64,000 nucleotides of DNA from Blasia pusilla (GCA_050084515.1 CM114271.1:29512001-29576000), one strand, 5' to 3'; positions 9,353 to 28,119 are shown, counted from the first letter of the stretch. Numbers and translations: made by a program. Notes: generated by a model not told the origin, from the sequence alone.

Positions 9353-11743
9353 CTCCCCCTCAAGCTCATATCGATATCTCTAACGCCTAAATCCTTTCTA
9401 AACATCTCAAACTTATCTCTAGACAATGCCTATGTAAAGATGTCAGCAATTTGATGATCTGTACCTATATACACAAAATTAATTTCTCCTGCAAGCACTT
9501 TCTCTCTGATAAAATGATAGTGCACCTCAACATGCTTTGTATGAGCATGAAACACATGGTTATTAGCAAGCTTGATGCTACTAATATTGTCTACATATAT
9601 TACACTAGGTCCTAAGTTACTAACACCAATCTCAACAAGTAATCGATGAAGCCACACCGCCTCACATGCTGCATTGGTTGCTCCTCTGTACTCAACCTCT
9701 GTTGAAGATTAAGCAACTGTAGGTTGCTTCTTTGAAGCCCAACTTATAGCTGCGCTTCCCAAAGTAAATGAATAAGCGGATGTGGAGTGTCGATCAGACA
9801 CGCTTCCTACCCAATCAACATCTATGAATCCCTGTAATTGAAAACTCGGAGAAGGTTCAAATTGAAGCCCGAATTGAATAGAGAATTTGACATACCGCAT
9901 AATCCTCCTTAGAGCATCAAGGTGAGGTTTTCGAGGTGCTTGCATAAAAATGGATCACTAGGCCAACAATATAGCTCAAATCTAGTATGGTTATAGTTAG
10001 ATAGATCAAACTTCCAACCATGTGCCTGTACATGTTAGAATCTGCAAGCAGTTCTACTTCATCCACTCTTAGCTTCACGCTCTGGTCCAATGGTGTAGAG
10101 ATCGGCTTACAAGCCGTTATACCATATTTTGAAAGTATATGAAGAGCATATTGTCATTGTAGTAACCACATGCTCTCTCCAACTTTGATAAATTGAATAT
10201 CAATGAAGTACTTGAGTTCTCCCAAGTCCTTTGTATCAAATTCTGCTTGTAACTTAAGCTTGACTTGTTGTACCATTTCTTCAGTAATCAAGAGATCTTC
10301 AACATACAACATAATGAGAACTGTATGATCTTGTCCTCTCAAGATATATAACGAGGAGTTAGAATCACATACCCTAAAACCCAACTCTTGTAGGATGTAT
10401 GTAATCTTGCCATACCAAGCTCTTGGAGCTTGTTTGAGCCCGTATAGAGCTTTCTTCAACCTGCATACGCGAAATGGAAACGTGGGATGCTCGTATCCAG
10501 GTGGTTGAGTCATATATACCTCCTCGTATAGATCTCCATTCAAGAAGCCATTCTTGACGTCCATGTGATGTAATCTCCACTTCTTACTTACTGCAACTGC
10601 AACCATTGTTCTCATAGTCGCCATCTTTGCAACACGGCTAAATGTTTCCTCATAATCGATACCATATTTTTGTGCATAGCCCTTAGCCACCAACCTCGCT
10701 TTGTATATGTTAATTGTACCATCTTGATTGCGCTTGACTTTTTAAACCCATTTGCAACCAATAGCTTCCTTACCGGAAGGTATATCAACCAGCTCCCATG
10801 TTTGTTGACGTCTTAATACAGCAAGCTCTTCCTCCATAGCTTCAATCCATTCGGCTTTACTCGCAGCTTCTTCAAAACAACTCAGCTCATGCTCTTGAAG
10901 GGTAGTCATCATATAAGCATGATGTGTTGCAAAGAAACCTTCATTTATGAATTTATGAACTCGATGTGTAACTCTACTTGATCTACGAAGTTGTTGTTTA
11001 GAGGTAGATGCCTTTGACACCCGACTTGAGCTCTAACTAGTGTCAACAGACTGAATATGTACTCTTCCCATCCATGGACTCACAGATTTAACTAATGAAT
11101 CTAGGACCTCTCCTAATCCTGCACTAGTACTTGGGGAAGTTTAAGACAATGTCTTTTGGTTTGTAGTCATATTCTCCCCCTCAACAAACAAGTTTAGAGA
11201 TGGAATAGGCTCAGATGGAGCATACCATGACTTTAGCTCATCAAAGACAACATCCCGACTAATAATAAGCTGCTTAGAGGATGGAATGTAGCATTTATAC
11301 CCCTTAGTTCCATGAGTATAGCCAATGAAGATACATCTTTCAGACTTGGGGTCTAATTTCTGACGTATCTCAAAAGGAACATGAGCATAAAAAATATAGC
11401 CAAATACTTTCAAGAAAGAAAATTCAGGTTTACTTTATGTGAAGACTTCAAATGGAGTTTTATCATGAATTCCTACTGTTGGAGTTCGGTTCATTAAGAA
11501 GATTGCACATGCTACAACCTTTGCTCAATACACCTTAGACATGTTCTTCTCATTCAGCATAGCTCGTGCCGCTACAGCAATATGTCGATTCTTCCTCTCA
11601 GCCACTCCATTTTATTGTGGAGTGTAACGGCAAGTCACTTGACGTTGGATGCCATTCTGGCGTAAATAGTCATCAAACTCTGTTGAAAGATATGCTCCTC
11701 CTCCATCACAACGCAATTTCAGAATGTGTTGTCCAATCTGCTT

Positions 11744-11850
11744 TATCGTGCGAATCCACATCGTCATACAACATACATTGCTAACATACCATACTCACAT
11801 ACATACATAACAAAGACGAGAGCATACACAAATACAAGTGTATCACAACT
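11744..11850. repeat. Repeat A (107 bp), terminal copy at the element 3' end
   Basis: Direct repeat of 12220-12326 (t[a/g]tcgtg.gaatccacatcgtcatacaacatacat...cacaact). Confidence 0.95.
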
Positions 11851-11955
11851 GAAATCCGTGAAAGACCTACTGTCATAAAACACGTATAGAATCACATACA
11901 ATCGAGCCAAATCCACTCCACGATGGGAGAATCCAAGTCGAAGCTTGCGAGAACC

Positions 11956-12217
11956 ACCATAGCCAAGAGCTCTACTCACTACCAAGGCTAATTCCCAACG
12001 CAACAGACTCAACTCAAAGAACTAACTATTCTTTGAGTACACTCCACACTATACCCTCCAACCTAAGGATGGGCCCTACTGGAAAAGTCAACCTCAATAG
12101 AGTAACCCCCAACCCTATGTATGAAACCGCATCCCTACCTAGACACTATGGCCCTACATAAGGTATGGCCTCTACTAGCACACTATACTCTACGACATAA
12201 TCCGTATGGTCATGACA
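11956..12217. repeat. Repeat B (262 bp), internal copy
   Basis: Direct repeat of 26764-27025 (accatagccaagagctc...ccgtatggtcatga[c/g]a). About 17 substitutions counted by eye. Confidence 0.95.
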
Positions 12218-12219
12218 GT

Positions 12220-12326
12220 TGTCGTGTGAATCCACATCGTCATACAACATACATCGTTGACATACCATACTCACATACATACATAACATAGACGAGAGCA
12301 TACACAAACACAAGTGTACCACAACT
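12220..12326. repeat. Repeat A internal copy, joined to B by a 2-nt spacer and adjacent to a PPT
   Basis: The junction reads catgaca-gt-tgtcgtg. A minus-strand purine tract aggggggcg lies at 12327-12335. Confidence 0.93.
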
Positions 12327-12489
12327 CGCCCCCCTAATTGGCGGTTAGGTCCCTCTAACTCCTAGGTAGCCCTACACATCTACTATATGCTATACACCTT
12401 CGTGGGTGCACGAATCAGAAGGCCAGGTACTAGGTTGCCCCATCGTTAGTTGCACATCTGTAATCCATATCATGCAAAGATCAAGTCAT

Positions 12490-13230
12490 CTACCCCTCCT
12501 TAGTACATCGAGGACAAACCCACCTTCCAATAGGAACAACATCCATATGTGGAGTCAAACACATCATGTGCCAATCCCTAGAACACCGATCACACAACAA
12601 CATACATGCTGCGTTACCAACAGACCCACACAACATGCACCTCAAGCTAGCACGTATCATGGCTAAGCTTGGGTCAACAGTACAATCCACATTTGGAAGA
12701 TGACATGGCGCACAATTACGCACATGGTCCTTCCAAACAACTCCATCACAACCCTCCAACTTGAGAACTCTAGAAGCTAACACCTCTCGCACTCGTAAAA
12801 TAGTGCGGCCTACCATCACATCCAACGTTGTCGGTGCAATCTGCTGCAAATATACATAGTCCCCCACATGGAACCTACGAATAGATGGTCGATAACCTCC
12901 ATCCCGAATGGTTGCATACTGCAATGTATCCCTGTGTTGAGCAATGGCTGTTGGAATAACTCTCCGAAAGAGCTCTGCCCGCTGAGAACACACTCTCATC
13001 CGCATCTCTGGTTCATCAAGGTTCACCATCTCACTAGACTCCCGACGAATTATTGTTGGCAAGTCTGGATCTCGGCCGTATAACAGAAAATAAGATGAGA
13101 AGGAAGCCAAGGATGCTTAGCGACTGACCCTATACCCCATGGCTAACCATGGCAACTGAATATCCCAATCTCCAAGATGCCCCTTCTGTAGGCCATAATT
13201 GCGCAATGCTCTCTTCACCGTCTGAACCAC
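12490..13230 (-). pseudogene. Gypsy integrase C-terminal region ending in a PHD finger
   Basis: SSYFLLYGRDP, then FHVGDYVYL, then CMLC-x8-LLCDRCSRDWHMMCL-x10-WVCPRC, a C4HC3 PHD pattern with the conserved W. Confidence 0.9.
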
Positions 13231-13234
13231 ACGT

Positions 13235-14511
13235 TGTCGTGTCGAGAGCCTTTCTTCGAGTAAGGGCAGGCCTTCTAACTGTGGCAGACGTGGTCAATGC
13301 AAGATGAACTCTCTAAGAAGTTCTCCTTTTTTAATACAAGATTATTATGTATACTCTCCATTATCTCACAACAGGTATTACAAATGGAAGTGCCGAGGTA
13401 ATCACTTCTTTGTAACATCGAACCCCCAAATTCATAACTATAAAATCCCTATAAACTACTTTACGCTTGTACACGAGGAAGATAGCACAACTAGTGTTAA
13501 ACCCTACTTGAGCAGGCCTATTGACATCCATGGATCATTATATAAGGACATATAAAATACAATCCCATGTCCTTCCATATGTGACGATAGGAAGGATCAC
13601 GAGAGTTGGAGATTAAATGACCTGGTTAATGAACGCCTCCCCAAAGTGGTAAACTAAATAGCGAATGAACCAGTGCCTATCTACAAAGAGTATCTTGACA
13701 TGGTATGAATTGAGGAAAGGAAATCCGGGCACAACTCGTGCTCCACCCCTATCCATGTTTGATAGACATTCTCTACTCTCCTCAAGAATGGGTTTTGATG
13801 GAGTTATTCTCCCAAGAGGGGTAATCTATTTTCATTGGGAAAGTAACAAGCCAAAACATTCACTATTTTAGTATGACTACACTCCTCTAAGGTGACAAAC
13901 CTCTCATCTCCACACACATACCATACTCTAGAAATCTCTCAAAGAATAGACCATGGTCAAGCTACTCTCCCAAGAGGGATGATCCATTCTTATTGGAAGA
14001 GCAAGCAATCCCAAAGCCATACACTCAAGAGTGACACGAAAGACTCAAGATGTGGAATAAAAGATGATGAACCCTTGAAGATCCCTCCTTTTATATACTC
14101 ACAAGAGATCCACAAGAGTACGAAATAGACCTAATCTTATCTTGTGCCACATGGCTTCCTCTCAAGGCTTAGCCAATCACATTTTGACACAAGTAGATTT
14201 CCTTTTATCTCTTCCAAAATATCCTCTTTTACCCACTTGATATTTTCCAAATTACCCCAACTAACCTAGCCACCAACCAAGCTTACTTTTGCTTTTCATT
14301 AAAGCACCAACCTCACTACTTTATTTTTATAAATTCATCCTTTATTTATTACCTCTTTTCCTAAAGTTGGGCCTGCATAAAAAAGGCACCATAAAGAGGT
14401 TTAAACATGAGAATATCCTTTTCCTAAGCTAATTTACTAAATACTAATAAAATTCTATCTAACACTTAACGAGGAAGGAGTTTACACACTGGCTGATTTT
14501 ACTATACGACA
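13235..14511. mobile_element. Solo-LTR-like insertion (1277 bp) in the integrase core
   Basis: Termini TGTCGT...ACGACA with a 4-bp TSD ACGT/ACGC. Removing it restores integrase ADGLAKR|VVQTVK. Confidence 0.85.
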
Positions 14512-16813
14512 ACGCTTAGCCAAACCATCCGCCTCTGAATGATCTCGAGACGTGGTCCGATGATCAATCAACGCCTTGTCACACTAGATCTGAAATTCAC
14601 CCAAACTCAGACGTACGTCACAAAGACTCTCATTTGGTGCACCAAAATGACTAAGCACTCTATGAAGAAACGCATACGCCGTACCCTCACTTGCCTTGTC
14701 AGATAATGCCACCAACTCAATCCACTTGGAGAAGTGCTCCACCATCACCAACACATATCGATGATGTTGTACATACCAACGATAATATGATCTGCAAAGT
14801 CCACACTCCAACGGTAATCCAACCCCATAATAGGCAAGGGATGTAACTGTGGTGTAGGGGCATTGAATGATACCCTCACCGAGTCACAAACCATACAAGG
14901 TGACACCAATTGCTGCACCTGAGTATGCATGCCACGCCACCAATATTGACCAAGGAGTCATTTTGGGATAAAGCTATATGTACGCTTTACCCCAAAATGT
15001 CCCAACTCCTCATGGGTATGTCGCACAATACGTTCTCTTTGAGCCAAATGCGGCACCACACGTACTCTACCATCCTCCTACACACGGAAAATATGTGTTC
15101 CCTCCAATCGATACCTCCTAGTACGTGGAAGAATAGGATCTCGCTCCTTGGCACTCACTATGCCTGGCACCCTATTGGTCCGTAGGAACTCCAACACCAA
15201 CGCATCATCATGAATATCACGTAGATCCGTACCACCATCTCCAACCTTACGATCTGAAGGCTGACCATCTACTACCTTTTGACTAGAGTAAGATGTCATG
15301 TGGTCCTCCATACTAGAGTCCACCCCTAACCAACATAAAAAGGCACATGCATGCCAACCTGGCACCATCTCCTCATCAACCTTACCATGCCATGTAGCCC
15401 CAATTGCATCCTCTTGGCTAGTATATGGATTCCTACTCAACCCTCAGCATCAAGGTTGGCAACTCCAGGTCTATGTACCACCTGGAAGTCATACTCTTGT
15501 GAGATAAGAGCCCACCGTGCAAGCTTCCCTGTAAGCTTGTCACACTCCATCAACCACTTGAGCAGCTGGTGATCAATAACAAGGGTAAACTGTGTGCCAA
15601 AAAAATAACACCTAAAGTGTGCCACAGCCCACACTACTTCCAAGCACTCTCCCTCATATAAACTATAGCGCGACTCCGCTGCATTACTCGAATGACTTGT
15701 ATAGGCCACCACAAACTCCATGTGCTCGTCATCATGTTGTGTCAACACCGCTCCAAGTCCCAACATACTCCAATGAGTGTGCAAATGAAATGGGCACCCT
15801 CTGATAGGTCTCCTCAAGATAGGCACGGCCACCAACTAGGCCTTGAGCTCCACAAAAGCTCTCTCCTGATCATCTCCCCAGTGCCACTCCTGATCTGATT
15901 TCAGCAATTGGTTCAAAGGCTTTGCCATAGCACTAAATCCCTTTACATACCTCCGATAGTAGTTCGCCAATCCCATGAATGCCCGAACTCTACTCACATC
16001 TACCGCACAAAGAATAAGTACAATAGCCTCCACCTTTGCTTGCTGAACTCCCAAACCACTTGGATATATCACATGACCCAAGTACTCAACATCCTCATGG
16101 AAGAACTTACACTTTCCTGGATGCAAACGTAGACCATGAGCTTTCAACCGCTCAAACACAATCTGCAAATGTATCTGATGCTCCTCCACCGTGTTACTGA
16201 ACACCAAGATATCATCAATGTAACACCGAACAAAATCCAACCCTGCTAGGATCCTGTCCATCACTCTCTGAAACTCGGCAGGTGCATTCTTCAAACCAAA
16301 GGGTAAGAATTTCCATTGGTACAAACAATCCTTGCCATGAGAGTTGACACCCCAAAATGTTGTCTAAGCCTTGTCACTCTCTCAAATGGGCAACTGATGG
16401 TATCCTGCCCGGAGATCCAAAGTACTGAAAATCTTTGCCTCTCCCACCACATCAAAGATCTCCTCAGGTGTAGGCATGGCATACCTATCGGCCTTGGTTT
16501 GCCAATTGATAGGACGGTAATCTCCATACATCCACCTATCCGTGTAGTTGCCATACATATTCTTTTTAGCAGGCATGACAGTGGCTGATGCATACTCTCC
16601 ATGCGACAACTCCACTAATCCAGCCTCCAAAAGGTCCAACGTCCTACTTTGAATCAAGTCCCTCTCCATATCACTATATCGGTAAGGACGACAAAAGATT
16701 GGCATATCATTAGCCAAATCAATCCGTATACAGGGTCCAACCAAAGCACCCAACTCCTTCATGCTAAAGCAAAACAACTCCAATAAGCACGTAGGTAATA
16801 TGTCAAGCGTCAT
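14512..16813 (-). pseudogene. Gypsy RT, RNase H, integrase zinc-binding and core domains (stops and frameshifts)
   Basis: RT motifs: DYRPIN, FSTLDLRAGYHQL, LPFGLKNAP, YIDD, YLGH. RNase H: LGAVLTQ, YFFGTQFTLVIDH, HRPGVANLDA. Integrase: HEELGHFG...CMVCD, VMVEHFSKW, VLSHFGAP. Confidence 0.95.
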
Positions 16814-17028
16814 TTCTCACCTCCCGTAAGTTTGGGCCCAAGTAATGGCTCCCAAGTCTCCTCCACTGGCACACTAGAGGGAGAGGACGACGCCATTGGC
16901 TGCTATGCAATCCCCTCACAAGATGGTACACCCTTAGCTACACCATCCTCTGAGCAAATAACACCTCCACGAGCATGAGCAACCAACTCCACAAGCCCAG
17001 CCATTACATCCCATTTACTCCAAGAACC

Positions 17029-18122
17029 CTAAATACTACTCTCCTCACCCCCAGCCGATGCCACTACCATCCCGATAGCCATCGAGCTCATCATAAGGGG
17101 TGGAAGACCCACATACATAGTCCGAAGCCAATGTTGCTCGGCCATACCAAGACTCAAAATCCACGTCAAACAATTCAGGTCCATGGCCTGACCCAACACA
17201 TGACGTTGAGAAGCCTCAGAAATGGAAGCAACCATTGTCACACCAGTTGCAAATCCCATCGCACGCTCTCTCTCATCAGCGTGAGGCTCCACCAATTGTC
17301 GCTCATGAGAATCCCATACAAGCCCGGGACCACCTTCCCTATAGGCATGTGACGAGGGAAAACTCACAAATGTGGGTAGTGCCATCCTAGGCTTCCCCAC
17401 ACGGTTCACCATTGCCATGGGTGACCGATCGATAACCCTCACCACTTGAGAAAGTCGCCCACTATCCAAGATACTATCCACTGTAAAGCAAGGATCCCGC
17501 TGCATTGCATCATATGCTCGACGTAGAACCTCCCTGGGCAACAAGTTTGTCCATCACAAGCGGGGACGATGTGCACGCGAGCCAACTCGCGCTGCATCCA
17601 ACAACACCGCTGGTCCAATCCAAGACTGCACCTCATGAACACTCGCCATGATCCAGGTCTGAGTATCACCCAACAATGGAACATTCTCCAGAATGTAAGC
17701 TTGAGCACGTGCCTGATGAACGTGAAGATGTCGTAACACACGCAACATCTCCCAAAACAATCGAGACCTAGAGTCGTGTAATCCCTCACCACGACCAGCA
17801 CGTGTATGACCCTGACATGGCTATCTAGCAATCACCAAATCCACAAGACCAACCCTCTTAAGGTCCTGCGCTCCCAACAATGCAATGTGTGGGAGCGCAG
17901 GAGCGCTGATGGCGGAAACAACTCAAGATATCTCCACATCAACTGACCAATATGTCGGGATGAGACTCTCTGGGCCGTCTCATCTCGCTCCACATACACA
18001 TATCTCTGCAGAGGAATACCCGCCTGCAATACTGCAACCAAACTAGTGCTAATCCAACCAAAGAGATCTAACACACAAAGGCCCTCCGGCGGATACTGCC
18101 ATACAATGGGTGTAGTATGCAA
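17029..18122 (-). pseudogene. Cytosine-5 DNA methyltransferase domain (DNMT3-like) within pol
   Basis: Motif I VLDLFGWISTSLVAVLQAGI and motif II YVYVE. Motif IV DLVIAR*PCQG, read manually at about 17841-17809. Motif VI YILENV. Motif VIII DAARVGSRAHRPRL*WTNL. Motifs IX-X ERERAMGF...RHVLGQAM. Confidence 0.9.
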
Positions 18123-18508
18123 AGGGGATAACCCAACTGGACCAGAAGTAGGAGTCCTCCGTGGAGTCTCCTCTTCCTTGTGAGATATAACACCCTCATA
18201 CCAAGCCTCTTGAAGTAGGCGATCAGCCTCCTACCGTAGTGCACCGCCTGAACTCCAAAGTGGCACATCCGATGATGAGGATGCAAGTGCTGCAAAACTA
18301 GGGACCTCCTCTACCTCCTCATGCACATGAGAATCCATAGTAGAAAGATTACCCTCCAAAAAGTCTCCTGGCCACTAAAACCAGTCACAGATGCTAACAC
18401 TGTTGGGGAAGACCCTCCTAGCCGAGCCCCATAAATAAATCTCACAGGAACCTGACTCATATGTCGATCCCCAGACTGCCAACCAGGTCTATAAGATGCT
18501 GTCTCACT

Positions 18509-18823
18509 CTAGTAGTCCATATGAAAACCCATCGGGTATAATACTGCTCCTCCAACTAGTACATCATACGACTCGGCCGATGTGACCATTGCAGGTACTC
18601 CCAACCGGGAGCTATCAGTTGCATGATCTGGTCTCAACTGTACAGACAACTTCTCCCATGTCATGAATTGAGACCTATCATTGGCTCCTCCAAGTGATGT
18701 TTGAATCTGGAATGGGCAAGGCTCAAGCTCTGACCTCCGAATACCCAAACCAATGCATGCCGCCTTTCCCAACATCAAAGGTTGGGCACCAGAGTCTAAC
18801 AAGACTCTATCTGGTCTATACAT
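18509..18823 (-). pseudogene. Retropepsin-type aspartic protease
   Basis: VLLDSGAQ catalytic motif and a downstream YDVLVGG motif. Same frame as RT. Confidence 0.88.
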
Positions 18824-19322
18824 CTATCTTGTAGGACTCACCAATCGGAATATCCCACTGTGGTTGTCCAACATACATACACGAGGTGTAAGCCTCTCAC
18901 GATCAATGGCTGGCCGGGCTGCTAATGCATCCATCTTCGCCGCTGCTGCCTGCCAAGTAGCACTGGTACTCAATGCTACACCTGACATAGAGGTGCTCCA
19001 CTGCAACACCTTCATCCACCTCAGCAGGTGTAGCAATAACACCCCCACGTTCACACAGCGTGGCTGCTAGCTGAAAAATAGGAGCTAAGTCAACTCCTAA
19101 AGCCATCAGCTCCGTAGCTGAAAAAAATGGGGATCCCAACAGTGAAGTTGCCATCCGCAATACTGCACTGGATGTTGCATCCGTGTCTACTACACGCAAT
19201 GTAGATGCCTTAGTCCCCACAGTAGGCTCAATAGGCTGCGTAGGAACCATGGATGGAATCCTAAGCACCTCAGACAACAAGAATGACTAGGGAAGCCTAG
19301 CCTTCCTCCCAACCTCACCCCT

Positions 19323-20950
19323 CTATGGGTCCAACTCCACAGTAGCACCACATGGTTGTGACGCTCGAGTGGCTCCTCTTGTAACTGCTCTTGATGCCTC
19401 AACCTGTGCTGCACTCACCATATAAGAGAGATCATCCCCTCCATAAGAGGTGGAAGCCCTTGCTCCCGAACCTGCTCTATGCTCGATACCAGCCATAGTA
19501 GCCAACCTCTGCTCCAACTGCTCAATCGTGGCAGCAATACCTGACTCTATCATAGTGGTAGGGGCATCCACCGTAGGCTCTCTAACTGCTGATCCACCTC
19601 TACCACCTCAGCCTCTCGGAGCTACTCCACCACAACCGCGGCCTGATCTCAACTCTGGATGAAGATCAATGCAACGCTCTCAAGGATGACCTGGTCTTCC
19701 ACAATGATCTCACTAAGTTGGGGCTGATTGAGGTCCATCCTCCAAAGTCCGTCCCCCATCCTCTTGGGGAAAAAACCTCCTAACATGATCACCTCCACAT
19801 GTCCAACATGATTGTCCTTGCTGCGGGGCAGCAAATGAAGGCAATGGTCTCTGCGCAAGTGTCCCTCTAGGATCTAATTGAGGTCGTGTGTACCCCCCAT
19901 AACTCCCACTACTACTACCGCCACCACCACTACGAGACTGTGAGGTGGACTACTAAACACGAGAAGTAGTAGTTGTATCCCTACTGTATGCGGATGTCAC
20001 CACCCTCTCCTCCACCATATTAAACTCAATCTTCTCAAATAGAGCAAACATATGGGCCAATGTGGGTGAATCATCACTCATAAGAGTAGCATCACGTACC
20101 CTACGACGCAACTCTCTGTCCAAGATCCCATACCAAAATTGGACTGCCTAAGCCTCATTCACACCCTGGGTAACTGAAATCAAGCGTCGCATACGAGTGT
20201 ATGCCTCACGAAGACTCTCACTAGTCTTTCGCTCAAATTCCTTAAGACTCCTCAACTTCTCTGTCTTCACCCCTTGATAGTTCTTCTTCAACCTCTTGAA
20301 GAACTCTGCAACCGGGCTAAACGATGGTGGGGCACTAGTACCTCCACTAGTATCCCCACTGGTACCTCCATTGGTACCCCCACTCCGGCTCGTACTCGCA
20401 CCACTTAACATCGGGCTAGCTAACAGAGTAAGAGCACTACTACCAATACCACCATGGGTGATAGACACATAGCTTGGAGACCAATCTTGTCTCCATGCCT
20501 CAATCTCAGCAACATGGTCCCTCCTAAACTCATGGTAATCATCCATGGGTGGTCCCTCCAAGTGCTGAAAGAACCCCTTCCAAGCCAAGAAGGGTGTAAA
20601 CAATGTGGCATTCCGCAACATCTGCATATCACACCACATATCAAACTCCTAAATGAATTCCTCCAACTCAATGGTGCCCACTGCACCCGAGTATTGTTGT
20701 GAGCCCTTCATGGCCCCATACATCCCGTCCATGTCCCAAATCAATGGAGTTGCAACACTCGATAACAACGTAGAAGACTCGGTATTTGGAACACCCTCGT
20801 CCTCCTCTTCATCAACCGTCGGAAGTGGAAAAGGTAGCCGATACCTCAATCCACTTCGTGTAAAACCACCAGTGTCCGTACCACGGTCGCCAGCCAGACC
20901 ACCAAACAGCTCCGTGATGACCAACGCCGATGCCGCACCACCACCAAATC
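19323..20950 (-). pseudogene. gag of the Gypsy-like element
   Basis: Capsid-like EFFKRLKKNY...LKEFERKTSESLREAYTRMRRL. CCHC remnants CWTCGGDH and HCGRPGHP*ERC at about 19670-19810. Confidence 0.75.
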
Positions 20951-21811
20951 AAGTGACGTCGATGTCGCTGTACTATTCTAGCTCTACTTGCTATGGGTGT
21001 GAGCAACCTAACCTATCATCACCACAAGAAGCCTCCCACGGTCTACTGGTCATCACTCTAGCCTCACTACCGATAGCACACAGGAGTAAAACTACTCTGG
21101 AAATCAGCGTAAGCCCTAACAATGGGCGCGCAAGCAAGAAGCAATGATGGAGGGGGTCCAAACACAGGAAGTCCAACGACAACCCTCCAATCGCAAATGG
21201 AAGTACAAAGCGGAAATCAAAGTAACACAATCCACCAAACGTGGCGCCCCCTGAATCTACAAAAACAACCACACAATTCTAACGCAATAGTCACTCCGCC
21301 GGTGGTCGATGACGTGCAAGTCGCACTCGCAGCACCTGAAAATGTCACCTGCATGGAGAGGCCACACTGTACTATGCACTAGAGGTCCATCAACCAAAAA
21401 CCCGAGATGTATAAAAGCGCCTAACGCATATCCAAATAACACCAAATGAACTACACGAGTGTGTACATTGGCATAGTTAAGTACTTAGCAGTTAAGTACT
21501 CAGCAGTTAAGCGTCTTCCAGGCAGAATAGCCCAAAGATGGGTGACCAGTTATGCAACACTCAACTCACAAATAGGGTAGGGGCAAATTTTTTCTATTAA
21601 TAGAAATGAAGAAAAATAGGTAAAAACCCTAGTTTTCTCGAGTAGTCAAATAGTCGGGAGCCGCAGCAGTAGCCCATTCTTGTATGTCGAGTTATCTCCC
21701 AGTTTAGGTTCCATCGAAGCTCTTCTGTGAGCGCACGGACGGACTAGGCCTCTTTGTATCTCTAAGTTTTGTAAAGATTTCAGTGATTTCGTCACTTTCT
21801 GTTTTCTCACA

Positions 21812-21823
21812 TGGTATCAGAGC
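21812..21823 (+). promoter_or_regulatory. Primer-binding site complementary to the initiator tRNA-Met 3' end
   Basis: TGGTATCAGAGC directly follows the LTR end ...ctcaCA. Confidence 0.92.
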
Positions 21824-21883
21824 AGTAGGTTTTCCAGTATTTTGTATCTGGCGATCTAGTGTGTTTGCACAAAATCTTGAGAG

Positions 21884-24800
21884 ATGGCTACCTCTTCGTC
21901 ACTTCGTGCTCGCCCTCCTCCGCTGGGTGAAGGGAAGTTAGATGGATCTAACTATACGTTGTGGAAGTTCAAAATGAGAACTGTTCTCGAATCATTTGAG
22001 ATCTGGGAAACGGCCACAGGGGTCGATTCAAATCCACGAGCTAGTGTGAGTTCTGCATGTTCATCTTCATCTGGGGACATCGATCTTCTTGTATTATTGG
22101 CATGGAGACGCAGAAATGCTGATGGTCTATATGCGATTGTCACAAATGTAACTGATTCTATCATGACTCTCATTCAACATACAACCACTGCTGCTGAGGC
22201 GTGGAACATTTTGAAGAATCAGTATGAAACAAGGAATGAGACTCGGATTCAGAATCTGGAGAATCAGCTTACGTCCGAGAAATTTTCAGAAGGAGAAAGC
22301 GCGGAGCAATTTTTGACAAGGATCAAGAATCTTCAAGATCACATGGCGTCCGTGGGAATTTCAAAGTCTAGCGAAGATTTGGCATGTCGGTGCATAAGGA
22401 TTTTGCCTCCAAGGTATGACAGTTTGGTCACTGCACTGAATACTCAAGTAAGACCCACGCCGCTTACTTCTGAACAATTTAGTGCAATGTTGGTAGAAGA
22501 GGAAATGCGCTTCAAAGCAAGAGAGGGAAGTGACGCAGCATTTACTGCCAACGTACAGAGAGGTAGAAATCAGGATTACAGTTCAAATGTCAAGAAGAAA
22601 TTTCCAAGAAAAACCTTCAAATGATTTTATTGTGGTAAGCTAGGTCATCTTATCAAAGATTGTAGGAAGAGGAGTCAGGATGAGAAGAACGGTTGTTTAA
22701 GACCTAAGAAGGAGTCTGGAAAGTGAGAAGGGGGAGAACATGAAGTAGATGCTTGGGTAGCAATAGAAGAGTTTTGCACACAGGCAGAACATTCCACTAA
22801 GACAAAGAGTGAAGATGCATGGGTGCTCGATAGTGGAGCGTCTAGGCATATGACCAATCATAAGGATTGGTATAGCTCCTTACAGCCTCTACAGGAGCCC
22901 ATCGTTGTTACTGTTGGGAATAATGCAAAATGCCCTGTAGAAGGGAAAGGCACAATTTCTTTAGTCTCACAAAAGGAGATGAAAAGAAGTTAACTGATGT
23001 CTTTGTGACGTACCCGAGTTGAAGCGAAATTTGATTTCAAAGTGGTGATTATATGATCGTGACCTAGAAGTTCGTTTCAAGAAAATCGAGCGATCATTGA
23101 GGATGCCAATGGGAAAGTAGTGGGTGAAGGTATACGACATGGAAATATCTACGAGTTGTATGCTTTCACGACAAGTGTAGGTACAGATCTTAGTAGCGAT
23201 GTAAGTTGTGGCATGAAAGATTTGGTCACCTAAGCTTTCCCTTACTAAGTCGATGCAGAGAAATGGCATGGTTCTTTGATTTACCAACAATTTCGGAGTG
23301 TCGGATACTTGTGAAGCTTGTATGATGGGCAAGCAACACCGACAACCATTTCCACAAGAGTCCAGAAATAGGGCAAAGGCTCCTCTAGAGTTGATACATG
23401 CTGACCTCTGTGGTAAAATGAGAACAATGGCATTAGGTGGTTCTTCCTACTTCTTTTTAGTTGTCGAAGATTATAGTAGGAAGATGTGGGTGTATTTCCT
23501 TCGTGATAAGGCAAGTGCTTTTGGAAAATTTAAAGTATGGCACAAGCTGGTTGAGAATGAGACATGAAAGAAGGTACAAAAGCTTCGCACCGATCGAGGA
23601 GGAGAATTCTTATCAACAGAATTCAACAAATATTTGGGAGAGCATGGAATCAAGGGATAGTTAACCACGGCACATACACCACAACAAAATGGAGTTGTTG
23701 AGCGTCGAAACCGTACAGTGGTGGAGATGGCAAGATGTATGATGAAAGCAAAAGGTTTTGAAGGATTTTGGGTGAAGTCGCATTATCTTGCCGTATACAT
23801 TCTAAATAGAAGTGCTACCAAGTCAGTGCAAGGCATGACTCCTCATCAATCATACTCACGTAAGGTACCATCAGTCCAACATTTCAGGACTTTTGGTAGT
23901 GAGTGTTTTGTACATATTCCTGAAGCATCGAGGACCAAGTTGGAGTCCAAGAGCAGGAAGTGCATCTTTATGGGATACAGTGATGAGTCTAAAGCTTATC
24001 GCGTTTGGTGTCCTGAGGAAAAGAAGATGCTTGTGAGTCGTGACGTGGTGTTCCAGGAACAGCCTCGTCAAGTGGCGGATATCAATGGTCCGTCCACATT
24101 ATCATCAAACGAAGAGATAACCCACCAGAGCACACCACAGATGTTTACACCAGATCATCAAGAAGAAGAATTTGGTGATGATTACAAAGAGCAACCTTCT
24201 CTTCCACTACGGTCGTCATACCCTAAGTGGATAAAGCAGCTCTTGGATGGTAAGGATCCACCAGCAACTGATGAAGTTGTTACACATCCAAGGAGATCCA
24301 AGAGACTAGAGGAGCAGAATAGAGCTTCCGCACATCTCGTCAACATGGCCCTGATGACAGAGGTCTTGAAGGTGGAAGAGCCATCATGCTTGGATGAGGC
24401 CCTCGCTCATCCTCAATGGAGAGAGGCCATGCAGACGGAGATGGACGCTATTCAGAGAAATGAAACTTGGACTTTGGTTGAAAAGCCAGAGGACAAGAAG
24501 ATAATACGCACCAAGTGGGTGTACAAGACCAAGTACAAGTCGGACGGTACATTGGATAAATTCAAAGCGAGGTTGGTCGCACAAGGATGCTCACAAATCG
24601 AAGGCTTTGACTACTATGAGACTTTTGCTCCCACTGCAAGGATGACAACCATTCGAATTGTTCTAGCGGTTGCAGGAACAAGACGTTGGCCTGTATACCA
24701 ATACGATGTGAAGTCTGCTTTTCTGAATGGGAGTCTCAAGGAGGAGGTATATGTTTCTCAACCACCAGGTTTTGAGACACCCGGATCAGAAGAGAAAGTT

Positions 24801-25901
24801 TGTTTACTTCATCGAGCATTGTATGGGTTGAAGCAAGCCCCAAGGGTATGGTATCAACGAATAGATACATTCTTTCGAGAGAAGGGTCTCATGAAGAGTC
24901 CTTCAGAAGCAAATTTGTATGTGTTTTGCGAAGATGGGATGTATATGTTGATAGTCTTGTATGTGGATGATCTGATCATCACAGGAGACCACAGTAAGAA
25001 AATAGAGGAAATGAAGGGAGTGTTGGAATCTGAGTTTGAAATGTCAGATTTAGGTCTTCTGCACTACTTTATAGGATTGGAAATTTGGCAACAGTCAGAT
25101 TCTATTTTTCTCTCTCAGCAGAAGTATGCTAGAGAAATCTTGAAGGCATTCGGGATGACCGAGTGTAAGGCAGTGGTCTCGCCAATGGAGGTGGAGTTGA
25201 AACTCTCGATGGAGGATGTTTCACCATTGGTAGATGAAAAGATATACAGAAAGCTTATAGTCAGTTTGATATTTTTGTGTAACAGTAGACCAAACATTAG
25301 CTTCGTTGTGGGAGTATTGAGTAGGTTCTCAACTAAGCCTCGTGAGAACCATTGGAAGGCAAGGATGCGTGTGTTGAAGTACATCAAAGGCACTATCGAG
25401 TACGGCATCACCTATGGAGCAGGGACGAAAATGACAGGTTTTTGTGACTCAGATTGGGCAGAAGATTTAGATTCTCGAAGATCAATTTCGGGTTATTGCT
25501 TCTTGGAAGGATCAGGTGTGGTGTCATCGGTCAGCAAGAAGCAATCTACAGTGGCTCTTTCTTCTACCGAGGCAGAGTACAAGGCGGCTTGTTATGCTTC
25601 TTGTGAAGCAGTATGGTTGAGATGGATACTGCAAGACATAGGAGAAGCACCAGAAAGTGCTACTGTAATGTGGTGTGACAATCACAGTTGCATTGCCATA
25701 GCACATAATCTTGTGTTTCATGCTCGTACAAAGCACATAGAGATCCAATACCATTTTGTTCGTGAATTGATCAAGAGAGAGGTTTTGAAGTTAGTCTATT
25801 GTCCAACAGAGGATAACCGTGCAGACATCTTCATGAAAGCCTTGAGCGGAGATCAGCTTCACCGACATCTGAAGGGTCTTGGCATAGGTCCAAGACAGTA
25901 G
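21884..25901 (+). pseudogene. Copia gag-pol polyprotein (several stops and frameshifts; 727-aa INT-RT-RH segment open)
   Basis: KLDGSNYTLWKFKM gag, CCHC remnant, WVLDSGAS protease, ELIHADLCG integrase, YGLKQAPR and LYVDD RT, ARTKHIEIQYHFVRE RNase H. Confidence 0.95.
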
Positions 25902-25930
25902 TCCACATGAGAATGGATATTGAGAGGGGG

Positions 25931-26309
25931 TATTGGATTCTCAACATCCACTCCTCTGAGCACCATTGATTTGATCGGCTCCCTTGTATGAGGAGAATCC
26001 TAGATCGATGGTTCCAACTTAGACGTCGGAGGAATCATAGTAATATGACGTAGGTGGTTTACGGAGTAGCGTTACTAGAAACAATTTTTTTCTATTAATA
26101 GAAACGAAGAAAAATAGGTAAAAACCCTAGTTTTCTCGAGTAGTCAAATAGTCGGGAGCCGCAGCGGTAGCGCATTCTCGTATGTCGAGTTATCTCCCAG
26201 TTCAAGTTCCATCGAAGCTCTTCTGTGAGCGCACGGACGGACTAGGCCACTTTGTATCTCTAAGTTTTGTAAAGATTTGAGTGATTTCGTCACTTTCTGT
26301 TTTCTCACA
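25931..26309 (+). repeat. 3' LTR of Copia family 2
   Basis: Starts tattgg right after the PPT and ends tttctcaca. Only the last 228 bp are shared with the 5' LTR. Confidence 0.85.
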
Positions 26310-26763
26310 CAACCGAGCTCTGTACTCCAAGCTAAAAATCAGACAAACTTGTTGTCCATACACCTCCAGAATCGCAAATCCGACAGCGCTTCCGCCCAGA
26401 TTCATGCACACAGAAATCTGCAACACTCTTTCACCACAGAAGCAATCCGCTCCATACACTCAAGCTGATAGCTTCACATGAGATAAAAATAGAGGTAGAA
26501 ATAGGAAGCTCCAACCTACAGAGCTTCCGCACTCCAAGCTCTCCACATTAGAAAACCGTCGAACACGAGCCAGAATCTTCAATCTTTGATAACTCCCAAC
26601 TCCCTTGATGAAATCCGGCGATTTAAAGTGCATTGGAAAGCTCTTAGCAAGGCGCTTCTTTCCCAGCCAACCACGCATCAGATCCACACCTCCAACATAG
26701 GCCACAAGCCACAAACATCCATGGAAAATTACACTATCAGCCCTAACCAGATCCTACTGATCT

Positions 26764-27025
26764 ACCATAGCCAAGAGCTCTACTCACTACCAAGGCTAAC
26801 TCCCAACGCAACAGGCTCAACTCAAAGAACTAATTGTTCTTTGAGTACACTCCACACTATACCCTCCAACCTAAGGGCGGGCCCTACTGGAAAAGTCACC
26901 CTCAACGGATTAACCCCCAATCCTATGTATGAAACCGCATCCCTACCTAGACACTACGACCCTACATAAGGTATGGCCTCTACTTGCACACTATACCCTA
27001 CAACATAATCCGTATGGTCATGAGA
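26764..27025. repeat. Repeat B terminal copy at the element 5' end
   Basis: Matches 11956-12217 and abuts TSD GCTT. Confidence 0.95.
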
Positions 27026-28119
27026 GCTTCTCTACTATAACTCTGAATGTTTGGAACACTACGAATACCTCTGACTTGGCTTTCAAAAACTATACCCGTA
27101 TATACCTAGAGAAGTCATCAATAAATGAAACAAAGTACTAGCAATCACTAAGGCTATGTTGTGATGTTGTCCACACATCATTATGGATAAACTCCAATAT
27201 CTTGGATGCTCTTCTACCTTGCTTTGGAAAAGGAAATCTAGCTTGTTTTCCAAATTGGCAAGTAGGACATACCTTTAACGTAACAGGACTTGCTAATTTA
27301 GGGAGTCCTATTACTATATTAGATGATGAAAGACTATGTAATCTTTGAAGATTCATATGTCCAATTCTTTTATGCCACACATTTAGATTTGTAACTTGTT
27401 GGCCGGTTTGACCATACATTGTTGTTTGAATCTCTGGCATAGAAACATCTAATTTGAACATTCTGCCAGATCTAATTCCTTTGGCTATCGTAGTCTCGTC
27501 ATCCATTGTTTCAATTAAACAACCATCTGCGTTAAACATCACTTGATAACCCTATTCTACTATCTGTCCTACAGAGATCAGATTTCTTGCAATGGTAGGA
27601 ACATAGAGAACATTTTCAAGAGCACAAACACCATATGATGCTATTGGAACTTTACCACTATGCGTTATATGATGTTGAGTGTCATCTTGTGTGAGCATAA
27701 TTGCAAGATCTTTCACCGGCTCCAAACTACTGAACCTTTTAGCTTATGAGGTCATGTGATTTGATGCACCAAATTCAATGTACCAATCTGTTGTCAAGTC
27801 TTTCTTGACCATTGCTCCCATATGATGAGTCATGACCAAAAGATGCTCTGATTGTGAATGTTGTTGTTCTTGGTACTGCTCTTGGTGTTGTTGCTCCACA
27901 TAGTTTTGTTGTTGAAAGGCTCCTATTCTCATATCTGCCTTCTTCTTGAAGCAAAACTTTGCATAGTGACTCTTTATCCCACAGTAATTGCAAGATCCAA
28001 GGACCCTCTGCTGCTGACCTCGACCCCAACGGTTTCCACCATCATCACCATATGATTGTGTCTAGTACTGGTTCGTAGTTGATTGAGTGACGTTATATTG
28101 AGTGCCTCTTCCTCCATAT

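Follow-up and report, generated by a model that had tools for sequence, protein, structure and literature searches.

Two identical LTRs are the defining trait of LTR retrotransposons, and annotation tools seek exactly such pairs. Elements of the DIRS, Ngaro, and PAT type encode a tyrosine recombinase and usually lack target site duplications (TSDs), and their split direct repeats (i.e., A1-ORFs-B1-A2-B2 in PAT and Ngaro) reproduce internally the junction that would arise if the ends met in a circle. For KnitGypsy-Dnmt3 of Klebsormidium nitens, the legend to Fig. 4c of de Mendoza et al. (2018; PMC5890265) reports a DIRS repeat structure together with Gypsy domains. In our literature search of article texts, that legend was the only place where split repeats were described for integrase-encoding elements; a 2026 preprint merely cites "streptophytes (Gypsy-DNMT3)." Other systems offer partial parallels. 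Self-priming has been reported for the Tcn1 clade of Tf1/sushi elements in plants (PMC6317226), and integrase is reported to cut the palindromic LTR-LTR junction of 2-LTR circles of foamy virus and of HIV-1 in vitro (PMC1180852, PMC1905944). Troyka elements, reported from animal phyla, have LTRs of the ordinary kind, with CG..CG termini and a 3-bp TSD (PMC12440569).

Here, we analyzed a 64,000-nucleotide stretch of the Blasia pusilla genome (GCA_050084515.1 CM114271.1:29512001-29576000; referred to as the window), in which a retroelement occupies positions 11744 to 27025 on the minus strand (Table 1). The initial annotation had proposed that this element combines split direct repeats with a Gypsy-type reverse transcriptase (RT), a DDE integrase, and a 4-bp TSD, and the repeat search, blastn, Pfam, and a reading of the flanks all bore this out. 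The element is a further member of the KnitGypsy-Dnmt3 kind by description. Both have a Gypsy-type pol, a DNMT3-related methyltransferase within the polyprotein, a streptophyte host, and, according to the legend in PMC5890265, repeats in the order A-coding-B-A-B; this last likeness is one of description. The host groups differ, and the nearest named proteins of the Blasia element came from liverworts and Sphagnum, with no Klebsormidium protein among the named matches of the protein searches; Marchantia polymorpha is rich in homologous polyproteins. The suggestion of a possibly undescribed lineage was overstated, given what the 2018 legend already says. The account accompanying that figure makes no mention of a PHD finger, TSDs, a palindromic junction, the positions of the primer-binding site (PBS) and polypurine tract (PPT), or a B...A form. 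The annotation had also named Troyka as a lineage with split repeats. Troyka is likewise Gypsy-like, encodes an integrase, and has unusual ends, but PMC12440569, by its abstract and a search of its text, gives it ordinary LTRs and mentions neither split or direct repeats nor plants, and its 3-bp TSDs and CG..CG termini contrast with the 4-bp TSDs and TG..CA termini of the Blasia family.

TABLE 1 Features of the Blasia element and its insertions (positions counted from the first nucleotide of the window; listed from the 5' end of the element)
Feature	Position	Strand	Evidence or remark
5' TSD (element sense), AAGC	27026..27029	(-)	Flank reading; empty-site joint
5' B, truncated	26764..27025	(-)	First 262 nt only of B (~367 nt); repeat search, blastn
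5' leader remnant	26310..26763	(-)	Alignment with relatives
Nested younger Copia	about 21573..26309	(+)	Repeat search, ORFs
gag region, broken frames	19977..20732	(-)	Marchantia polyproteins align from 20732 (tblastn)
Aspartic protease region	18359..18973	(-)	tblastn to relatives
C5 cytosine DNA methyltransferase, DNMT3-like	16906..18230	(-)	PF00145; one frameshift, one stop
Reverse transcriptase and RNase H	15437..16816	(-)	RVT_1 E 2.3e-25; RT_RNaseH E 8.5e-29
Integrase N-terminal region and core (H2C2 zinc finger, rve)	14512..15443	(-)	rve E 1.3e-5, under cut-off
Later 1281-nt insertion within integrase, foreign to the element	13231..14511	(.)	Joint from 13230 to 14512
Integrase C-terminal region with PHD finger	12490..13230	(-)	PF00628 E 5.2e-8; 78% identity to P0049
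Polypurine tract AGGGGGGCGAG, G-rich, immediately upstream of A1	12325..12335	(-)	
A1, internal copy of repeat A, ending CACGACA	12220..12326	(-)	Repeat search, blastn
Linker AC (2 nt), palindromic A|B junction (A1 to 3' B)	12218..12219	(-)	
3' B, full length (B plus "spacer" of the initial annotation)	11851..12217	(-)	Alignment with relatives
A2, terminal copy of repeat A, ending CACGATA (mutated CACGACA)	11744..11850	(-)	Repeat search, blastn
3' TSD, AAGC	11740..11743	(-)	Flank reading; empty-site joint

The domains follow the order gag-protease (PR)-DNMT3-like methyltransferase-RT-RNase H (RH)-integrase-PHD. On the minus strand of the window and in a nearly intact relative (L070), the pol order PR-RT-RNase H-integrase with Gypsy-type RT/RH is that of Ty3/Gypsy elements, and the best PDB match in L070 was Ty3 Gag-Pol (E, 4e-98). 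Asp_protease_2, Integrase_H2C2, and rve were detected in L070; the protease fragment of the window had no Pfam match, and the Retrotrans_gag match of its gag region (E, 0.0027) fell under the Pfam cut-off. The methyltransferase and PHD domains named in the initial annotation were both recovered, the former with a score of 27.1 bits (cut-off, 22), between PR and RT in the window and in L070. A DDE integrase, TG..CA termini, and a TSD in the short range (4 to 6 bp) also agree with Ty3/Gypsy; two identical LTRs do not occur, since the 5' end carries B only and the 3' end carries A-NN-B-A or A. The repeat order is that of PAT/Ngaro elements and corresponds to the DIRS-like arrangement of the Fig. 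4c legend, whereas no tyrosine recombinase (Phage_integrase) was matched by Pfam in the window ORF fragments or in L070.

In the repeat search of the window, the two B copies (11951-12218 and 26759-27026) and the two A copies (11743-11850 and 12219-12326) were each 93% identical, and blastn aligned 260 nt of B at 93.8% and 105 nt of A at 93.3%. The element begins with TCTCATG (mutated TGTCATG) and ends with CACGATA (mutated CACGACA), with AAGC flanking both ends; its 5' B starts with TCTCATGACC, mutated from TGTCATGACC, and contains a TATA-like box and a hairpin formed by two boxes (box 1 and box 2). The element interrupts a Copia integrase, whose reading frame is restored, by direct reading, once the insertion is removed. 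An empty site was recovered from paralogous Copia contigs, which join 11739 to 27026 with four shared letters in three of four runs among the joints listed. Backward joints, from 12320-12327 to 11849-11852 with one to three extra letters, stem from other copies whose B.A junctions aligned to A1; they were not counted as evidence, because alignment ambiguity could create them.

Neither A nor a spacer copy was found near the 5' B in the window search, in agreement with the initial annotation. That annotation had treated about 105 nt (11851-11955) as a unique spacer, and within the 64-kb window this sequence indeed matched only itself by blastn. It is not a separate part, however. Its counterpart in the alignment of relatives is the 3' third of B, which the 5' B of the window has lost by deletion. 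The deletion, of ~120 nt, lies at junction 26763/26764 and took out the PBS as well; past it, the leader alignment to relatives resumes at GGCTGGGAAAGAAGCGCC. A loose end at 11850 in run X2 corresponds to canonical copies, in which the spacer is followed by the PBS CTCAAAGAAC..., and the leader region is multicopy (at least 99 contigs at 26666). A tRNA-iMet-like PBS candidate after the 5' B of the window (TGGTAGATCAG...) was rejected, since relatives place the real PBS in the deleted part. ARAGORN detected no tRNA within the 64 kb of the window, and its alignment with B led us to abandon a copied tRNA primer as the origin of the spacer. Two later insertions account for the 15.3-kb span of an element that is itself ~9.3 kb long. 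The nested Copia has LTRs of ~228 nt (96% identity), the PBS TGGTATCAGAGC, and gag, integrase, and RT ORFs, and the GC skew flips at its position. The 1281-nt insertion has TG..CA-like ends; other copies lack it (its joint appears in four of four runs), and the tblastn alignment of Marchantia protein P0049 spans it. All reading frames of the element are broken, and the locus represents an old copy, now dead, of a Ty3/Gypsy family with a high copy number.

We collected related loci from metagenome contigs (344 pattern matches, of which 257 were confirmed) and examined the best 80; all counts of related copies below refer to these 80 of 257, with the window added where indicated. Two integrated forms were about equally common: form 2 (i.e., B-PBS-...-PPT-A-NN-B-A) at 8 of 16 independent 3' ends (seven loci and the window) and form 1 (i.e., B...PPT-A) at the other 8. 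Complete form-2 copies were the window (TSD, AAGC), L034 (CATA; one locus with L031), L060 (AAGG), and L076 (TCTC), and complete form-1 copies were L006 (TACA) and L066 (TGTT). Thus, every complete copy (6/6) has a 4-bp TSD, and the family ends are of integrase type (TGTCATG...CACGACA). All 15 independent 5' ends (14 and the window) begin at B beside unrelated flank; A-NN preceded B at none of them, and no copy with two identical LTRs was found. The layout of the window is not a one-off, since it recurs in independent insertions that differ in their TSDs. On the basis of these data, DIRS-like split repeats inserted by an integrase with a 4-bp TSD are very probably the normal integrated form of the family. 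The related contigs come from few metagenome assemblies, and chimeras are possible; the matching TSDs of all five complete related copies argue against assembly chimeras. In run X1, 270,798 contigs aligned to the stretch, a number that includes those aligning to the nested Copia and the flanks. All main-family copies examined are degenerate, with no ORF of >470 aa in the seven copies checked.

The PPT of the window also stands before the PPT-proximal A of the related rows, in 19 cases out of 20 (L027, with an internal deletion at that point, departs from this), the linker NN is GC in five rows and AC, AT, and TC in one each, and the B.A junction reads TTTTCA-G/A-TTGTGG in seven of eight form-2 copies. 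In every form-2 copy, this junction, like that of a 2-LTR circle, is composed of the U5 end, 1 nt of PPT, and the start of U3; in L076, it carries a scar of 19 nt, among them the final 4 nt of the PPT. A1 and A2 of the window have a common 8-nt deletion and several common substitutions, those of L074 have their own distinct set, and the two B copies likewise carry lineage-specific changes in common, so that each pair is copied from one template per cycle, as LTRs are.

In the 3' B of the window (minus strand), a TATA-like box (12047-12053) is followed by box 1 (12029-12038) and box 2 (12012-12023), the predicted self-primer, which starts 31 nt after the TATA box. In the family, the box lying ~25 to 31 nt past the TATA box, at the predicted transcription start, is complementary to the sequence adjoining the 5' B over 12 nt in the main family and 15 nt in L070. 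Of the 16 rows with 5' copies, 9 have a PBS that starts with ACTCAAAGAAC; in the other 7 it is mutated or deleted, which is expected of dead copies yet weakens the count. In minimum-free-energy folds, RNA nucleotides 1 to 12 pair with the PBS in L066 and L060; the fold fails in L034, whose primer is mutated. The L070/L075 lineage, at ~51% amino acid identity in the DNMT fragment, keeps the order PPT-A...CACGACA-GT/GC-TGTCAC...B, and L070 has the domain order of the main family. Its primer/PBS pair differs from that of the main family and still matches over 15 nt, i.e., the two sites covary. No long direct repeats were found in L070, L075, or L048. The order in L070 is ...PPT-A-NN-B-PBS-leader, which a tandem, a circle, or collapse during assembly could produce; L070 is therefore silent on integrated ends.

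Since the PPT adjoins A and a self-priming-type PBS adjoins the 5' B, reverse transcription should define A-NN-B as the repeated unit. Transcription would start inside B, ~30 nt past the TATA box, and the first 12 nt of the RNA would fold back onto the 12 nt after the 5' B in Tf1-like self-priming. Plus-strand synthesis would begin at the PPT before A1, and ordinary reverse transcription would then build a cDNA with an A-NN-B unit at both ends. Self-priming, like the start and the poly(A) site of the transcript, is a prediction. The predicted primer resembles that of Tf1/sushi elements (e.g., plant Tcn1) in being the element's own RNA 5' end, complementary to the sequence adjoining the 5' repeat; those elements differ in having two ordinary LTRs and usually a chromodomain, where the Blasia family has split repeats and a PHD finger at the integrase C terminus.

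The absence of A from all 15 independent 5' ends and of any copy with two ordinary LTRs indicates that a noncanonical route from cDNA to integrated copy, as the initial annotation had proposed, seems to be required. Judging from sequence, we tentatively regard as the most likely mechanism a joined-end cDNA opened by integrase at the PBS-proximal palindrome. The integrase sites would lie back to back inside the A-NN-B unit, in the conserved palindrome ...GACA-GC-TGTC..., away from the unit ends. The cDNA ends would be joined, in a circle or between end-joined molecules, and opening of the joined molecule at the PBS-proximal palindrome would yield B...A-NN-B.A, i.e., form 2. Form 1 could arise by opening of a one-repeat circle, by use of both internal sites of linear cDNA, or by later A1xA2 recombination; only form 2 would have a full A and a full B inside the transcript as template for the next cDNA. 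Symmetric opening at either palindrome also predicts a B.A-NN-B...A form, seen at none of the 15 5' ends, and would need a PBS-proximal bias or rapid collapse of that form. Retroviral 2-LTR circles have a comparable CA-NN..-TG palindrome with two integrase end sites back to back; there it is present in the circle only and serves a side route or reserve, whereas in the Blasia family it is permanent inside integrated copies and RNA. With slightly less assurance still, we suggest that a streptophyte Ty3/Gypsy lineage may have moved its integrase sites from the LTR ends to an inner palindrome, so that productive integration would need joined-end (circle-like) cDNA reopened there.

The possibility that the window holds a two-LTR element that was rearranged, inserted in tandem, or integrated as an aberrant circle is suggested by the secondary damage to this copy (i.e., the 5' deletion, the two nested insertions, and the broken frames). 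It is made very improbable by the three further independent complete insertions with the window layout and different 4-bp TSDs, by four more 3' ends with A-NN-B(-A), by the lack of A at the 5' ends, and by the PPT-A-palindrome-B order kept in the L070/L075 lineage. Still less probable is a DIRS/Ngaro/PAT-type element, or its chimera with Gypsy, that moves by site-specific recombination of a circle: the repeat arrangement is its one point of agreement, and Integrase_H2C2 and rve are found in place of the recombinase, PR-RT-RH-IN order and the Ty3 match indicate Gypsy, and the family combines a DDE integrase and its zinc finger, a protease, and TG..CA-type termini with 4-bp TSDs in all six complete copies.

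A template-directed route, as in DIRS/Ngaro elements, would regenerate the ends without end joining. A transcript running from inside the 5' B into A2 would supply the A1-NN-B3 block (B3, the 3' B) as template, strand transfers would restore the missing ends (the left one in B, the right one in A), and the linear B...A-NN-B-A product would be used directly by integrase. The layout is formally that of PAT/Ngaro, a likeness that the Fig. 4c legend of PMC5890265 also remarks on for the Klebsormidium elements, and this route would account for form 2 without a B.A-NN-B...A form, which is absent from the 15 5' ends. The B.A junction and the NN linker, being mostly constant between copies, could likewise be inherited through RNA rather than remade each cycle, as this route would lead one to expect. 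We nevertheless consider it unlikely. No primer site follows any A, the sole PBS-like sequence lying after the 5' B and the sole PPT before A1, and among known strand transfers we found no series that would halt precisely where B and A end. An A2 copied from the parental A2 would drift from A1; the common lineage-specific changes imply that A2 is recopied from A1 in any case, and the PPT nucleotides before A2 in L076 fit a plus-strand 5' end better. Somewhat less unlikely, although still doubtful, is that form 1 is the primary product, made through two inward-facing internal sites of normal linear cDNA, with form 2 a minority by-product and the sole propagating form. Half of the 16 3' ends are form 1, both complete form-1 copies have perfect 4-bp TSDs, and end joining would be unnecessary; A1xA2 recombination within form 2, however, would yield form 1 equally well with the TSD kept. 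The data fit both origins of form 1, and this proposal is compatible with opening of a joined-end cDNA rather than an exclusive alternative to it.

An abundant family that regularly breaks the two-LTR rule while retaining a normal integrase has practical consequences: LTR-based finders will split, misdate, or miss such elements, since they lack the two-LTR structure. With the anatomy described here, what the 2018 legend remarked on becomes a testable model for the origin of split repeats in an integrase-encoding element; its pieces are the PPT at A, the predicted self-priming PBS at B, the conserved palindrome of back-to-back integrase sites, the circle-type B.A junction, the two forms, and the 4-bp TSDs. 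If the joined-end model is true, the "dead-end" 2-LTR circle would be an obligatory intermediate, and DIRS-like split repeats would be explained without a tyrosine recombinase; the model thus bears on the evolution of DIRS-like architecture and on joined-end cDNA circles as integration substrates. A chromatin aspect comes with the DNMT3 and PHD cargo, the PHD finger occupying the position of the chromovirus chromodomain. The best PDB matches of the L070 methyltransferase were DNMT3A/3B (E, about 2e-7), and the methyltransferase of the window had 53 homologues, of which those named came from bryophytes.

On the minus strand of the window (11744 to 27025), the decayed Gypsy element carries split direct repeats, A and B, rather than two ordinary long terminal repeats (LTRs). 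Blastn searches with each piece against the entire window (B against B, 260 nt at 93.8%; A against A, 105 nt at 93.3%) and a separate repeat search placed both pairs where the initial annotation had put them. As it had also claimed, the blastn searches found neither an A copy nor a spacer copy near the 5' B, and the 105-nt spacer matched itself alone. The element starts with TCTCATGACC and ends with ...CACGATA which, judged by the internal copies, are mutated versions of TGTCATGACC and CACGACA, respectively. A G-rich polypurine tract (PPT) lies immediately upstream of the internal A (A1). The proposed 4-bp target site duplication (TSD) was confirmed: AAGC stands on either side of the element, the flanking Copia integrase gene regains an intact frame once the insertion is excised together with one AAGC, and paralogous Copia contigs in three of the four sequencing runs (among the joints listed) connect 11739 to 27026 with four shared letters (i.e., the empty site).

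The split layout is family-wide. A metagenome-contig scan with the DNA methyltransferase (DNMT) alignment yielded 344 pattern matches and 257 confirmed relatives, the best 80 of which are designated L001 to L080. We compared 34 of these 80 loci, selected for long flanks, with themselves by BLAST, searched all 80 and the window with one A and one B, and inspected all boundaries; loci with identical flanks were counted once. Two integrated forms were found. Form 2 (B...PPT-A-NN-B-A, where NN is a 2-nt linker) measures 9.1 to 9.2 kb in the related contigs, while form 1 (B...PPT-A; 8.6 to 8.7 kb) is missing the second B-A. The 5' B adjoined an unrelated flank in 14 loci and the window, and A was upstream of it in 0 of these 15 independent 5' ends. 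Eight 3' ends were of form 2 (seven loci and the window) and eight of form 1. L010, L023, L074, and L001 (the last truncated by its contig end) have the form-2 3' structure, and the form-1 3' ends (L006, L066, L021, L022/L033, L027, L029, L036/L039, and L049) stop after the first A. Form 1 lacks any terminal repeat, and both of its complete copies have perfect TSDs. Independent insertions with TSDs differing from that of the window (L034, L060, and L076) share its layout, which is the check that the initial annotation had proposed. Neither an identical unit at both ends (i.e., two ordinary LTRs, the outcome it had named as contradicting its reading) nor B.A-NN-B as a 5' end occurred among the 80 loci and the window.

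Features of the window element and complete copies of its family
Feature	Position or locus	Strand	Remarks
B repeat pair	11951-12218 and 26759-27026		Direct, 93%; repeat search of 11000-28000
A repeat pair	11743-11850 and 12219-12326		Direct, 93%; repeat search of 11000-28000
Retrotrans_gag	ORF fragment	minus	Weak, under Pfam cut-off
DNA_methylase	ORF fragment	minus	27.1 bits, Pfam cut-off 22
RVT_1	ORF fragment	minus	Pfam match
RT_RNaseH	ORF fragment	minus	Pfam match
rve	ORF fragment	minus	Under Pfam cut-off
PHD	ORF fragment	minus	Pfam match
Younger Copia nested in 5' leader	~21573-26309	plus	Left boundary approximate
1281-nt insertion in integrase	13231-14511		Missing from other copies in 4/4 runs, joint 13230->14512
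Form 2, complete	window		TSD AAGC (4 bp)
Form 2, complete	L034 (= L031 locus)		TSD CATA (4 bp)
Form 2, complete	L060		TSD AAGG (4 bp)
Form 2, complete	L076		TSD TCTC (4 bp)
Form 1, complete	L006		TSD TACA (4 bp)
Form 1, complete	L066		TSD TGTT (4 bp)

The spacer (11851 to 11955, between the 3' B and the terminal A, or A2), initially described as unique, aligns to the last third of B in the relatives, where B is ~340 nt long and directly abuts A2. In the relatives, the 5' B copies have their full length and continue into ACTCAAAGAAC.... A sequence of this kind also comes after the spacer in six contigs of sequencing run X2 from the host species (a loose end at 11850, among those listed). In the window, the likeness of the 5' copy to the 3' B ends after ...GGCTATGGT, and likeness to the relatives' leader restarts further on. 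Thus, ~120 nt including the primer-binding site (PBS) were lost; this is secondary damage and no part of the architecture.

The PPT directly precedes A and the PBS directly follows B; the unit of reverse transcription should therefore be A-NN-B, which ordinary reverse transcription would place at each cDNA end. By integrase logic, integration would use the B start and the A end, which lie back to back within this unit. With GC, the commonest linker (GC in five related rows; AC, AT, and TC in one each; AC between A1 and the 3' B of the window), both ends form the perfect palindrome GACAGCTGTC. The B.A junction reads TTTTCA, G or A, and TTGTGG in seven of the eight form-2 copies (i.e., the PBS-side end, 1 nt of the PPT, and the tract-side start), the composition of a 2-LTR circle junction. 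In L076 (10837 to 10857), this junction holds a 19-nt scar made up of a short copy of the A start, a B-end-like piece, and the final 4 nt of the PPT, apparently a trace of imprecise strand transfer or end joining. A1 and A2 of the window share an 8-nt deletion together with several substitutions, and the L074 pair has another set; by these common lineage-specific changes, both copies are made from one template in each cycle.

If the cDNA ends were joined and the molecule re-opened at the palindrome that lies in the PBS-proximal unit, [A-NN-B]...[A-NN-B] would become B...A-NN-B.A, the simplest single operation that yields form 2. B...A would result if a one-unit circle were opened or if the two inward-facing sites of the linear cDNA were used, although form 1 may derive from recombination between A1 and A2 rather than being a primary product. 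Integrase cutting of palindromic LTR-LTR junctions has been described for foamy virus and for HIV-1 in vitro (excerpts of PMC1180852 and PMC1905944). However, a symmetric version of end joining predicts a B.A-NN-B...A form, which was seen in 0 of 15 cases, and the NN and B.A junctions are constant enough for inheritance. On the sequences at hand, we hold end joining with re-opening to be a tentative explanation, somewhat short of an even chance; that a template-directed, DIRS-like scheme makes the integrated form appears unlikely, and the rest of the probability falls to something not yet conceived. As A follows the 3' B only, a 3'-end signal needing A would stay inactive at the 5' B, a possible benefit of the arrangement. 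The anatomy worked out here renders the mode of integration testable.

In related B copies, a TATA box precedes the box AGTTCTTTGAGT by 31 nt, and the latter is exactly complementary to the 12 nt that follow the 5' B; a copy identical to the core of this 12-mer lies just upstream of the box and forms a hairpin with it. Of 16 rows of 5' copies (two duplicate loci included), nine have the PBS start ACTCAAAGAAC, which is mutated or deleted in the others. In the predicted 5' RNAs of L066 and L060, nt 1 to 12 pair with the PBS, a fold missing from that of L034, whose box is mutated. The distant lineage L070/L075 (~51% identity in the DNMT fragment) has the same order as the main family (PPT, A ending in CACGACA, 2 nt, B starting with TGTCAC). 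L070 has nearly intact open reading frames (ORFs; 1369 and 1047 aa) with Asp protease, DNA_methylase, RVT_1, RT_RNaseH, Integrase_H2C2, rve, and PHD domains. The L070/L075 box/PBS pair differs from that of the main family yet matches over 15 nt, which we read as covariation favoring Tf1-like self-priming. Tf1 primes with its own 5' end. Self-priming has been reported in the plant Tcn1 (Tf1/sushi) clade (an excerpt of PMC6317226). The L070 contig (8520 to 9317 and 1 to 975) reads ...PPT-A-GT-B-PBS-leader and seemingly wraps into its own start; the contig represents either a tandem array, an assembly collapse, or a circle of one unit.

Troyka, which the initial annotation had proposed for comparison, differs in architecture, having LTRs, 3-bp TSDs, CG..CG ends, and animal hosts (as excerpted from PMC12440569). 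The real precedent comes from Klebsormidium nitens, whose KnitGypsy-Dnmt3 likewise combines a DIRS-style repeat arrangement with Gypsy-type domains (PMC5890265, Fig. 4c legend). The element belongs to a kind noted once before. The core of the initial interpretation (i.e., split repeats on an integrase element) stands, while the unique spacer, the Troyka parallel, and the possibly undescribed lineage do not. A 2026 preprint mentions "streptophytes (Gypsy-DNMT3)" with no structural detail. Literature searches, supplements aside, returned no account of TSDs, the palindrome, the PBS/PPT phase shift, the two integrated forms, or bryophyte members.

Every reading frame of the window element is broken, and Pfam matches were obtained for six of ten minus-strand ORF fragments and none for the other four. 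The pol is of the Ty3/Gypsy type; its best PDB match, obtained with L070, is Ty3 Gag-Pol (E, 4e-98), followed by a caulimovirus. The integrase part is best matched by PFV integrase, and the methyltransferase is closest to DNMT3A/3B. The integrase carries the PHD finger at its C-terminal end (window 12490 to 13116, minus strand; L070, 5086 to 8226), where chromoviruses bear a chromodomain. In the PDB, the finger is best matched by those of chromatin proteins (CHD4, PHF12, PHF21A, KDM5, ATXR5, and UHRF1), which suggests that a histone mark directs integration.

The element measures ~9.3 kb once two later insertions are subtracted. The nested Copia has 228-nt LTRs (96% identical), a canonical tRNA-iMet PBS (TGGTATCAGAGC) directly after its 5' LTR, a 746-aa integrase-RT-RNase H ORF, and a probable 5-bp TSD (CACAA). 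The 1281-nt insertion ends with ...TATACGACA, starts near TTGTCGTG (TG..CA-like, resembling the ends of the host element), shows ~3 shared letters at its flanks, and might represent a solo LTR from a related family. Since the Gypsy element was inserted into a Copia element (integrase region; 11600 to 11743 and 27026 to 27500), the locus comprises at least three layers of nested retrotransposons.

The DNMT fragment retrieved 53 proteins, the named ones being from Marchantia polymorpha (~70% identical), Calypogeia, Riccia, and Sphagnum; many are gag-PR-DNMT(-RT) polyproteins, and the alignment along the element begins at 20732. The family is highly abundant in its host. With a likeness of at least 80%, 270,798 contigs from run X1 match the stretch, a figure to which the flanks and the nested Copia contribute. 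Small shares of the words of the stretch occur in several air-metagenome runs, which would be consistent with airborne material (spores or fragments) from the host or related plants and is not habitat evidence. Differences between this copy and others (11600 to 27200, run X1) are mostly C>T (396 places) and G>A (330), with 38 to 69 for each kind of transversion, the pattern expected when methylated cytosines decay in a silenced repeat.
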